From positions 1 through 47,880 of the IMG/VR virus record IMGVR_UViG_2880412407_000003: a stretch of 47,880 nucleotides of DNA. One strand, given 5' to 3'. A program made the position numbers. Of this stretch, positions 12,001-15,000 are shown one piece after another (within the stretch, counting starts at the first letter, position 1; the number at the start of each line of letters is the position of its first letter). The stretch comes from a virus (Duplodnaviria > Heunggongvirae > Uroviricota > Caudoviricetes).

Positions 12001-15000
12001 TTACCACACCTGATTTAAGATGCAGCTCGCACCGTGGGACGTTTCCGGGATCACTCTCAGGGCACTCATCAGGCTTGTTACGCCAGAAGGGATTTGTAAC
12101 TGGTCTGGTCGGCTCTGGCGTATCAGTCAGAGCCACCGGGACAGGCATGCATTCCTGTATGTCATCATCGCTCAGTAAGCCGTCCTCGTACTGGCTTTTC
12201 CATTTAAACAGCAGGTTATCATTGATACCGTGCTCTCTGGCGATCCGGGCAACAACAGCACCGGGCTGTAATGCCTGCTTAGCCAGACGGACCTTAAATT
12301 CACGGCTGTAGCTGGCTCGCCGTTCTTTTCGCCATGTGCCTTCGCTGATTTGAGGCTCTGTTAATTCCTTCTTTCTGTTGGCATAAAGGATGGCATCAAG
12401 CTGAGCTAATGAAACTGAATCGGGCAATGGCCATGCGATACCGGATGCAATAAATCGCTGAAAAAGCGTATGTATTGTGGAATGACTGAGACCTAGACGC
12501 TGAGCGATGGCCCGGATGGTCAGTTTATCTTCAAATCTTAAACGCAGAGCATCAGGCAAATAAGAACGGAAGCAGGGAATATCTTTTTTTGTCTGGGAAT
12601 TCATCGTTCGTGTCCATCTATATAGATGGGCGCGATTGTTGCCAGACAGGACAATTTTCACAAGACGTCGCAGATGGGGCGCTTACTGACCTACGCCGCA
12701 TGGATGAAATCATGGAGGCTCTTGATAATCGTTCGTCGATGGATTGGTGTGTTGCTGTTCATGATATGAATGCAGGGTTTGATGAAAAGATTTTGTTCCC
12801 CTCATCAGTTGAAAGCACTGCGGGTTAAGGAGTAACACATGACCACTATTACCAAAGAACGTATTGAATTGTTCATTAAAAATCCGGTTGAAAACGGGCT
12901 TACCCGTGGTGAACAAATGGAACTGGCACGGATTGCGCTGGCATCGCTGGAAGCAGAGCCGGTGGCAAAGATTATAGCTCATTACCCATTAGGGGTTGAC
13001 GTAGGCAAACAAAAATTCGTACAGGCCATTAGAGAGCTTCCTGACTTTGGCGGATATCTATTTGCCGCCCCTCCAGCGCCGATAGTGCCGGAAGAAATGT
13101 ATTGGCAGGATGCGCCAGTTGAAGGCAGCAGCAAAGCGGCTGCATACGCTACAGGCTGGAACGATTGCCGCGAAGCCATGCTTCAGTCCGGAAACTTTCG
13201 GGAAAATAAAGATTCGTCAACCAATAATTTTCGGAAAATCCCGGAAGCGTCAACCAGCTCTCCGGTAACTCCGGCTCTTCTGCCTGGTGGTTTCACCATT
13301 GAGGAGGCGAAGGAATTACATGAAGACCTGGTACGCAGCCACATAAGCAAGGCCTTAAGTGGCGAAAAGATGAAAAAGAAAGATCGCGATGCTGATTTGC
13401 GCTGGATTCATGGCGTTATAGTTCAGGCAGCGTGGTTTGTAAAAGCATCACTGGAGCAGAATGCACTATCGGGCAACTATCCGGTAACTCCGGATAGTTG
13501 GATAAGCTGTAGTGAGCGAATGCCGGATACCAAAACAGCCGTTCTTGTTGCCGTGGAGTTTGACAGGAAAGGTGACTGGCGAATGAAATGGGCGACTTAC
13601 ATCCCGGGTCATCCTGACGCTAATGATGGGTGGATAATTCCTGGTGCGTCGTGGAAACCGTCACACTGGATGCCGCTACCAGAACCGCCGCAGGAGGTGC
13701 GCCAATGAACTGGCCTGAAGCATTTGCAATTACAGGCGTTGCTATGGCTATCGCTTTTTTAGTATATGTTATTTGTCGGTGGGGGTAAAAACGTTCGCCG
13801 GGATTAACACCAAAGGAGGGAATATGTCGGATGATATATCACTGGCAATGGAAGGTGCGCTGGCTGTTGTTGCTGTTGTGGGCGTTTACTGCCTGGTTGT
13901 GTTTTTGATGGATCGACTAGGGAACTGAATTCATTACGATATGGGAATTCCCATATCGGGCGAAAACGGTTTGCTGTAACGGCAGAGTTAAGTAGAATTG
14001 CTGCGGGTGCTTGAGGCTGTCTGCCTCGGGCATGCCACCGTAAGGCAGACAGAGAAAAGCCCCAGTTAACATTACGCGTCCGGCAAGACGCTTAACATTA
14101 ATCTGAGGCCAATTTCATGCTTTGCTCATGTAGGTTAGCCTCTTACGTGCCGAAAGGCAAGGAGAAGCAGGCTATGAAGCAGCAAAAGGCGATGTTAATC
14201 GCCCTGATTGTCATCTGTTTAACCGTCATAGTGACGGCACTGGTAACGAGGAAAGACCTCTGCGAGGTACGAATCCGAACCGGCCAGACGGAGGTCGCTG
14301 TCTTCGTAGACTACGAATCTGAGAAGTAAGAGACCAGGCGAGGGAGAAATCCCTCGCCACCTCTGATGTGTCAGGCATCCTCAACGCACCCGCATTTTAT
14401 ATGCTGCAATGCAAGTGTTCATGTTAATTTCTTGAAGAGGACGATAATGAAAAAAGTATTAATCGCAGCCCTTTTTTCCTGCGTGTCTTTTGGCGTTTTT
14501 GCACAACAGGGAGGTTTTCTGGGGTCTGAAGCAGAGCGTTCAACAACAGTAGTGCAGGCAAAAGAACAGAAGGACGAGGCATGGGTTATCCTTGAAGGGC
14601 ACATCGTTAAAAAATTGGGTGATGATCGTTATGAGTTTCGCGACAGTAGCGGAACCATTGTCACGGATATCGATGAAAGTGTATGGGCCGGGCAGAATGT
14701 GTCTCCGGAAGATAAGGTAATAATCGAGGGTGAACTTGATAAAGACCTGAACAGTGTTGAACTGGATGTAAAAACGCTGAAATTATTAAAGTAACCGGTT
14801 CTGGTTATCCCCGTCTTACTGACGGGTTTTCTGTTTGTACATTCCGGCGTATTGCCTTACAATTCGCGCCGTCAGCCTGAACAACTGGCACCTGCTGCGT
14901 CACCGGAGAAGCCGATGGCGCAACATATAAAATCCCACAATTCCGAAGCCGCCCCGACTACTAAGCAGGGGCGGCGTTTCCGTGTGCCTCAGTATGGCTG

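Follow-up and report, generated by a model that had tools for sequence, protein, structure and literature searches.

The 47,880-nt stretch of DNA analysed here (hereafter, the window) comprises positions 1 to 47,880 of the IMG/VR virus record IMGVR_UViG_2880412407_000003, assigned to the Caudoviricetes, and carries a gene for a small protein of the BOF family, resembling YgiW, 118 nt downstream of a hok/sok locus. The hok mRNA terminator, which normally comes right after the fbi element of this RNA, appears to have been displaced here to the far side of the BOF gene. Together, a small open reading frame (ORF), sok/hok, the BOF gene and the terminator form a portable cassette of approximately 1 kb that is found at three unrelated sites. 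A sequence-only reading of this region had described the BOF gene as prophage-borne, provided with a signal peptide, belonging to the YgiW/YdeI (BOF) family and lying next to hok, and the analyses reported here bear out these four points, the signal peptide as a prediction.

The locus upstream of the BOF gene is a complete hok/sok type I toxin-antitoxin locus, with a Hok ORF, an overlapping mok frame, a sok region and the pairing of tac with fbi (Table 1). The Hok protein of the window is identical to the experimentally validated HokW of the Shiga toxin 2 (Stx2) phage 933W (PMC8621323), and the Rfam sok family RF01794 matches positions 14005-14179 with 114.4 bits. Pairing between the 5' tac element (14003-14016, GCGGGUGCUUGAGG) and the 3' fbi element (14379-14393, CCUCAACGCACCCGC) closes the hok RNA, whose fold has a minimum free energy of -171.3 kcal/mol (z = -7.7) with its ends paired. 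Five alleles were compared, namely those of the window, of 933W, of two other prophages and of one non-prophage copy, and the folded region is nearly invariant across them. Transcription of hok probably starts at approximately 14003-14005, which fits the 5' end of the folded mRNA, in a region conserved in all five alleles. The hok promoter, the tac-fbi closure, the mok/hok overlap and the sok region are features that the locus has in common with canonical hok/sok systems, such as those of plasmid R1 and of hokD/relF in prophage Qin, the DNA identity to hokD being 95% up to fbi.

The resemblance to the canonical systems stops there. The hokD gene of K-12 is 95% identical to positions 14160-14397 of the window, and the homology ends three bases past fbi. 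Directly after fbi, hokD has a strong intrinsic terminator, consisting of AACCCGCTTCGGCGGGTT and then TTTGTTTTT. The hok/sok locus of plasmid R1 also has its terminator directly after fbi, which is the canonical arrangement. Unlike these loci, the window has a 348-nt gene for a putative secreted protein inserted between fbi and the terminator. The spacer between fbi and the BOF gene measures 53-55 nt in the window, in 933W and in the chromosomal, non-prophage copy, with a conserved Shine-Dalgarno sequence, and a terminator scan detected no terminator within this spacer in any of the three. In the window, RNA folding of the spacer likewise gave no hairpin that is rich in G+C and precedes a run of T. 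Past the hok promoter, all three versions have their only + strand terminator behind the BOF stop codon, at a distance of 15 nt in the window; 933W has the same hairpin, whereas the chromosomal copy combines a preserved stem with a changed loop (CCCCGTC-GTCAG-GACGGGG).

A standard scan detected no + strand promoter with at least 9/12 matches between hok and the BOF gene. Given that the gap holds no convincing sigma-70 promoter and that the post-fbi terminator is missing, the BOF gene is more likely to be a second cistron of the hok transcript, and we rate as slightly better than even the prospect that it forms the promoter-distal part of an RNA of approximately 830 nt made from the hok promoter. 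Several observations weigh against co-transcription. A relaxed scan returned a single promoter candidate in the gap (TCCTCA, 16 nt, TATGCT; 14378-14405), which matches 7/12 positions and overlaps fbi, and the 933W allele has an equivalent site (TCCTCA, 17 nt, CATACT); these two sites leave room for a separate BOF transcript. Moreover, canonical hok mRNA is activated by trimming of its 3' end, a process that a long extension by the BOF gene would make less straightforward, and the text of the HokW study gives its northern blots without transcript sizes (PMC8621323).

The same promoter and terminator evidence bears on the description of the BOF gene as a moron, a further claim of the sequence-only reading. 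The terminator directly after the gene agrees with that description, but a convincing promoter of its own does not emerge. As a classical independent moron, the BOF gene would be transcribed from a weak promoter in the 3' region of hok, with a start near 14412, and would end at its own terminator, its adjacency to hok being a matter of hitch-hiking; the hok mRNA would then end near fbi without a canonical terminator, or be processed there. The 7/12 site is in the right place for such a promoter, the 933W-type allele has a comparable arrangement, and in PHROGs the adjacent hok is classed as 'moron, auxiliary metabolic gene and host takeover'. However, the site falls below the 9/12 criterion and its -10 element differs between the alleles (TATGCT versus CATACT). 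The closest hok without a BOF gene, hokD, has a terminator precisely where the homology ends, and its lack in three of three BOF-bearing versions is hard to explain if the hok mRNA must stop at that point. We therefore regard the independent moron as rather unlikely, though it is the alternative that survives best. Lambda morons such as bor and lom likewise are prophage genes whose products are envelope proteins made with a signal peptide and are thought to favour the lysogen over the phage. Each of them, however, is transcribed from a promoter of its own and has a documented phenotype, and the BOF protein is unrelated to them in sequence and fold.

A more far-reaching reading starts from the same co-transcription and takes the BOF gene as an integral cistron of the hok mRNA, a cargo placed between fbi and the terminator that would be expressed from the unusually stable, 5'-closed RNA. 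The 3' trimming that arms Hok would then have to proceed through the cargo, and the BOF product might in addition act together with Hok, for instance on its periplasmic tail or on the timing of lysis at induction. In this full form, with coupled function, we consider the reading unlikely. On the opposite strand, a minus-strand promoter-like site at 14394-14421 (TGAACA, 16 nt, TAAAAT; 9/12) is directed from the spacer into the 3' region of hok. It has a counterpart in the chromosomal copy (L007 3981-3952) and none in 933W, and it could either produce an RNA antisense to fbi or be due to chance.

The cassette as a unit was identified in three settings. In lambdoid prophages, namely that of the window and two others, it occupies the nin region, flanked by the replication genes and DUF968-RusA-Q; in 933W and the Sakai prophage Sp5, it lies at the attR-proximal end; and in four assemblies labelled E. 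coli (L007-L010), it has a ccp-like gene on one side and apbC-metG on the other, and no phage genes lie nearer than 8 kb. The non-prophage copy (L007 3368-4382) aligns with positions 13813-14829 of the window at 86% identity over the whole unit, including the 34-aa ORF and the terminator, so that the homology runs from the Shine-Dalgarno sequence of the 34-aa ORF to the hairpin past the BOF gene. The homology with 933W covers positions 13963-14838. The 34-aa ORF, which had no match in PHROG or PADLOC, is kept in the non-prophage copy with amino-acid changes. The ccp-like neighbour of this copy is 78.6% identical to E. coli ccp, and its apbC-metG segment is matched from end to end at only approximately 88%, by plasmids of approximately 110 kb, with shorter matches of 95-99% in most E. 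coli genomes. Inspection of the cassette edges by eye revealed no repeats or obvious mobility signatures.

Among 5426 complete E. coli genomes, 549 possess the BOF gene; O157, O145, O111, O121 and other Shiga toxin-producing E. coli (STEC) account for most of them. A 1-kb query spanning hok and the BOF gene was covered to at least 80% in 547 E. coli genomes, and the hok part of the same query had matches in 4729 genomes. Considering these numbers, the BOF gene is essentially always joined to hok, whereas most hok loci lack a BOF gene. The allele of the window is itself uncommon, with only 11 complete genome records matching it at 99% identity or more, and a second prophage copy of the gene is present in the same strains. 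Two scans of species-representative genomes yielded no close relatives, the matches being relatives of 34-48% identity in Pseudomonas, Woeseiaceae and Treponema, and this pattern fits an accessory, mobile gene.

In the ORF list of the window, the BOF gene extends on the + strand from an ATG at 14447 to a TAA at 14792-14794 and encodes 115 aa; its Shine-Dalgarno sequence, GAAGAGGA, lies 5 nt before the ATG. The family assignment rests on profile scores far above the cut-offs, both for the Pfam BOF family PF04076 (E 1.6e-30; 105.7 bits against a cut-off of 25.8; profile positions 10-102, that is, 93 of 103) and for the NCBIfam family NF033674, 'NirD/YgiW/YdeI family stress tolerance protein' (127.6 bits against a cut-off of 35). 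The BOF family comprises 1554 representative clusters in a 50%-identity library. The only solved relative detected by sequence is YgiW of E. coli (PDB 1NNX; E 2.5e-25, residues 18-112), and homology to it supports an OB-fold beta-barrel. The protein is 47% identical to YgiW and 34% identical to YdeI of K-12, matches PHROG 1230 (function unknown) over its full length, and returned 8 close alleles and no others in a search for homologous proteins. An OB domain that binds nucleic acid was considered and rejected, given that PF01336 scored 17 bits against a cut-off of 27 and that the mature protein is strongly acidic.

The N-terminus consists of an MKK n-region followed by a 15-residue hydrophobic core, VLIAALFSCVSFGVF, whose end provides the V-F-A site, with cleavage predicted before QQGGF. 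The resulting signal peptide has 19 residues, with small residues at -3 and -1, and the ten most hydrophobic consecutive residues of its core have a mean Kyte-Doolittle value of 2.86. The signal peptide can be aligned with those of YgiW and YdeI, and the QGGF motif at the mature N-terminus is shared with mature YgiW. These features are widespread in the family: in an alignment of 115 single-domain representatives, such a hydrophobic stretch at the N-terminus occurs in 110, and conservation is 83% at A19 (position -1) and 73-83% at G22, G23 and F24. The mature protein of 96 residues (approximately 10.6 kDa) has an isoelectric point of approximately 4.5, with 21 D+E and 12 K+R, and is acidic like mature YgiW. 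The stretch 'LFSC' (residues 9-12) was considered as a lipoprotein signal and discarded, as it is too near the N-terminus and Cys12 is Gly in the 933W-type alleles, which shows that it is no lipobox. YgiW, YdeI and SipA have all been reported to be periplasmic (PMC6370654), and taken together with the features of the sequence this predicts export of the BOF protein to the periplasm via Sec.

The BOF gene is a functional gene under purifying selection. Across the five alleles, the ratio of nonsynonymous to synonymous divergence (dN/dS) is 0.11-0.25, with dS reaching 0.3-0.6 for the more distant pairs, and values of approximately 0.2 indicate purifying selection rather than a chance ORF. The consensus residue is kept at 39 of the 45 family positions that are conserved at 60% or more, including D43, G51, Y62, F64, D66, G69, I75, W80, G95, D98 and V108, and the six departures are S/P, E/D, S/T, T/V, D/E and L/V. 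For the more distant alleles, the synonymous divergence of hok is only 0.03-0.10, as against 0.3-0.6 for the BOF gene. The low dS of hok suggests constraint on the RNA structure, gene conversion between the numerous copies of hok, or both of these, or else that the cassette is of mosaic origin. The contrast fits a hok that is constrained as RNA and a BOF gene that evolves like any other coding sequence.

For this family, the mechanistic model that is best worked out comes from the periplasmic BOF proteins YdeI (OmdA) of Salmonella and E. coli and SipA (VCA0732) of Vibrio cholerae, which are implicated in tolerance of cationic antimicrobial peptides, Cd2+ and H2O2 (PMC6370654). Their genes are under the control of two-component systems, unlike the BOF gene of the window, which lies in a toxin-antitoxin cassette. 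In V. cholerae, SipA binds both polymyxin B and LL-37, has OmpA as an interaction partner, and is needed for tolerance of H2O2, of Cd2+ and, in the Classical biotype, of antimicrobial peptides (PMC6370654). In tolerance of H2O2 and Cd, ygiW of E. coli and sipA cross-complement each other, and interactions of YdeI with OmpD and of YgiW with OmpF have been reported (PMC6370654). VisP, the YgiW of Salmonella, is a factor in stress and virulence that resides in the periplasm; it interacts with LpxO and has an influence on the length of the O-antigen (bioRxiv 10.1101/318089). Given that the conserved core and the strong negative charge are kept, an additional periplasmic binder of cationic ligands or porins that would raise the envelope-stress tolerance of the lysogen is the best-supported function for the BOF protein of the window. 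It is a tentative proposal from homology, as is the role in lysogenic conversion suggested by the sequence-only reading, and we give this particular function at best an even chance.

Other results count against a direct transfer of function from the characterized relatives. The protein scored 103.1 bits against the YgiW/YdeI subfamily profile TIGR00156 (cut-off 108.15) and 66.4 bits against the YdeI equivalog NF007471 (cut-off 179). Being just under the former and far under the latter, it is best described as a distinct, YgiW-leaning paralogue that is the orthologue of neither chromosomal gene, and what is known of YgiW, YdeI and SipA applies to it approximately only. The genomic context adds to these scores in ruling out orthology to YgiW/VisP or YdeI: in K-12, ygiW is a core chromosomal gene that adjoins qseBC and is divergent from it, whereas the BOF gene of the window lies in a prophage behind hok. 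YgiW also differs from the protein of the window in a duplicated QGGF-containing linker that is 15 residues longer, although the two agree in their family, a Sec signal peptide, an acidic mature protein of approximately 10-12 kDa, the QGGF mature N-terminus and 47% identity. An AlphaFold2 model built from a 7-sequence alignment of close alleles reached a pLDDT of only 37.5. Furthermore, the searchable literature yielded no functional, phenotype or transcript data on the BOF gene or its counterparts L0136, H0152 and ECs_1244.

Given the near-absolute linkage of the two genes (547 of 549 genomes) and a transcript architecture that they probably share, a coupling of the BOF protein to Hok has to be weighed. 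The protein would be a periplasmic partner of the C-terminal tail of Hok, or of the damaged envelope, that tunes killing or lysis at induction, and thus a third component of hok/sok. It would be in keeping with this proposal that HokW is made on induction and aids the release of Sp5 (PMC8621323), and that the cassette is oriented in the sense of early transcription in both phage settings. Most hok loci, however, including the 95%-identical hokD of K-12, work or exist without a BOF gene, the hok part of the query having matches in 4729 genomes and the BOF gene in 549. The toxin-antitoxin plasmids of that study are described in its text as carrying hokW-sokW only, with the BOF gene unmentioned (PMC8621323). 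We consider a partnership with Hok improbable.

Slightly less probable still is a role in superinfection exclusion or receptor masking, in which the BOF protein would dock on a porin or other outer-membrane protein and protect the lysogen by keeping competing phages from adsorbing or their DNA from entering. Exclusion genes that act at the envelope, such as Cor, Llp and SieA, are frequent in prophages, and the BOF gene is enriched in poly-lysogenic STEC genomes. Relatives of the protein do interact with outer-membrane proteins (PMC6370654), but the literature examined reports no exclusion phenotype for BOF proteins. No PADLOC defence model matched the BOF protein, Hok, the 34-aa ORF or the 90-aa ORF downstream, and the cassette also occurs outside prophages. 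Finally, a functionless passenger decaying in a defective prophage, as the insertion sequence (IS)-riddled surroundings and the truncated portal gene might suggest, is very improbable, considering that the ORF is intact, that dN/dS is approximately 0.2 at a dS of 0.3-0.6, and that the family-conserved residues, the Shine-Dalgarno sequence and the terminator stem are all kept.

Under the mechanism that we propose, with the BOF gene as the distal cistron of the hok transcript and its product as a periplasmic binder, a weak constitutive hok promoter would produce in the lysogen the transcript of ~830 nt, from approximately 14003 to 14836. The 5' part of this transcript would be the translationally closed and very stable hok RNA, and the 3' part would be the BOF cistron with its own strong Shine-Dalgarno sequence. 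The BOF protein would in this way be made continuously, without dependence on the phage repressor. In the periplasm, it would bind cationic ligands, such as antimicrobial peptides and metal ions, and/or an outer-membrane porin, and thereby raise the tolerance of the lysogen to envelope stress, and the hok/sok part would guard the cassette against loss.

At induction, early transcription under antitermination would reach the cassette in sense orientation. In the window, the latter is oriented in the direction of the pR operon, from the replication genes to Q; in 933W, it lies on the same strand as int and the pL operon and, after excision and circularisation, would lie downstream of int across attP. 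Early transcription would thus come from pR in the window and from pL, after circularisation, in 933W. Such transcription would increase the levels of both hok RNA and BOF RNA and would disturb the antisense sok promoter. The HokW study reports that sokW RNA disappears, that HokW is made only after RecA-dependent induction of Sp5, and that HokW helps Sp5 phage to be released (PMC8621323). Sense transcription against the sok promoter may explain the loss of sokW and the appearance of HokW, and the BOF RNA is predicted to rise as well.

Table 1. Coordinates of the cassette features in the window
Feature	Position	Strand	Remarks
34-aa hydrophobic small ORF	13824..13928	+	MSDDISLAMEGALAVVAVVGVYCLVVFLMDRLGN; RefSeq hypothetical protein WP_001278454.1; left part of the cassette
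Probable hok promoter	13970..13998	+	TTTGCT/TTGCTG, 16-17 nt spacer, TAGAAT (-10 at 13993-13998); relaxed hexamer scan
hok mRNA body	14003..14393	+	tac-fbi closure in the RNA fold
mok frame, 70 aa, overlapping hok	14117..14329	+	ORF list; counterpart annotated as mokW in 933W
hok toxin gene, 51 aa	14174..14329	+	PF01848 HOK_GEF, E 4.3e-23
Spacer between fbi and the BOF gene, 53 nt	14394..14446	+	Holds the Shine-Dalgarno sequence, 14434-14441
BOF-family (YgiW-like) gene	14447..14794	+	Predicted signal peptide 14447-14503; mature 96-aa acidic protein 14504-14791
Intrinsic terminator, right edge of the cassette	14810..14836	+	CCCGTC-TTACT-GACGGG (hairpin 14810-14826), then TTTTCTGTTT; terminator scan

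The first 24.5 kb of the window are 99.996% identical to the chromosome of E. coli strain 2014C-4423, and other 100% matches to the 1-kb hok and BOF query include O121:H19 strains. The prophage, which belongs to a Shiga-toxin-type E. coli, is lambdoid, integrated beside potC, riddled with IS elements, defective and without stx. Its genes begin with int, xis, exo, kil, relBE, regulators, replication genes, an IS66 insertion, DUF551, the 34-aa ORF, hok and the BOF gene. These are followed by a 90-aa ORF, DUF968, RusA, Q, a methyltransferase, three tRNA genes, a nanS-like esterase, and lysis and tail genes broken by IS3-family elements. The BOF gene thus lies inside the prophage, between the replication genes and the DUF968-RusA-Q block.

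Several further features were observed around the cassette. An IS66-family element (tnpA, tnpB and tnpC; 10010-12661) lies in the nin region just upstream of the DUF551 gene. The latter is the end of an uninterrupted 289-aa ORF (12839-13708, + strand; DUF551 domain, E 9.8e-21), which RefSeq splits, on the 99.996%-identical sequence, into three parts, namely two fragments marked as pseudogenes and a DUF551 protein of 62 aa. Over its final 244 nt, the ORF shares 96.7% identity with L0140 of 933W, likewise a gene upstream of hokW. On the other side of the cassette, a promoter-like site (TGTACA, 16 nt, TACAAT; 14836-14863) lies just past the BOF terminator, and the 90-aa ORF (14915-15187, + strand) between this terminator and DUF968 matches PHROG 1212 (function unknown); in Qin of K-12, its slot is occupied by the unrelated gene rem.

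Elsewhere in the prophage, the early-left region carries a gene for the small RNA DicF (4959-5010, minus strand; 74 bits) by kil and dicB remnants. With the relBE type II pair (6144-6615, minus strand), the prophage has at least two toxin-antitoxin systems. Three phage tRNA genes were identified at 19116-19365 on the + strand; the first is tRNA-Met (CAT) according to ARAGORN and tRNA-Ile in RefSeq, which presumably assumes a lysidine-modified CAT anticodon, and the others are tRNA-Arg (TCG and TCT). Two small RNAs were detected with Rfam, STnc100 (20138-20327, + strand; 148 bits) and the anti-GcvB RNA AgvB (20328-20389, minus strand; 96.5 bits). They lie downstream of the Q-methyltransferase-tRNA block, which is the position of stx in Stx phages, with a TerB-family pseudogene and a small DUF3927 gene just upstream. 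The lysis and head region contains two IS3-family copies with ALIL frameshift pseudoknots (23901-24017 and 25342-25458) and IS600-like copies (approximately 28100-31700), and the portal gene is truncated. Past position 24484, the window and strain 2014C-4423 differ in IS content and order.

The BOF gene is already known. The exact protein is RefSeq WP_000756560.1, a 'YgiW/YdeI family stress tolerance OB fold protein', and an 82%-identical allele is L0136 of phage 933W, described in GenBank as 'similar to hypothetical YgiW and YdeI proteins of Escherichia coli'. Counterparts of L0136 are H0152 of VT2-Sakai, which is ECs_1244 of the Sakai prophage Sp5, and genes of Min27 and the PA series. Like the BOF gene of the window, L0136 lies directly downstream of hokW/sokW, with a similar type of spacer, a matching terminator and an identical Hok. 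Relative to L0136, the allele of the window has one extra residue and 18% substitutions. The cassette of 933W and Sp5 also differs in its attR-proximal location, downstream of int across attP, and in a homology that does not include the part with the 34-aa ORF.

A 2025 case-control genome-wide association study of STEC in Ireland found 'ygiW_2' and 'group_5720' (mokC-like) to be jointly associated with haemolytic uraemic syndrome (HUS), with the dependency between them left unexplained (PMC11950266). Judging from their annotations alone, these are probably the adjacent hok/mok and BOF genes of the cassette, carried on Stx2a phages of the 933W/Sp5 type among others. If the pair is indeed the cassette, the association with HUS may reflect linkage to the toxin phage, which would be a sufficient explanation, although an independent effect on virulence would still be possible.

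The gene itself changes little in the general picture, as it is an annotated member of a well-populated family that has been known in Stx phages since the sequence of 933W. Approximately one in ten complete E. coli genomes, mostly STEC, carry this extra, predicted periplasmic BOF paralogue. The new lead is the architecture, in which the terminator of a hok/sok locus appears to have moved behind the gene for a secreted protein, within a portable cassette. The missing post-fbi terminator may, therefore, provide a lead on type I toxin-antitoxin cassettes that carry and stabilise cargo genes.

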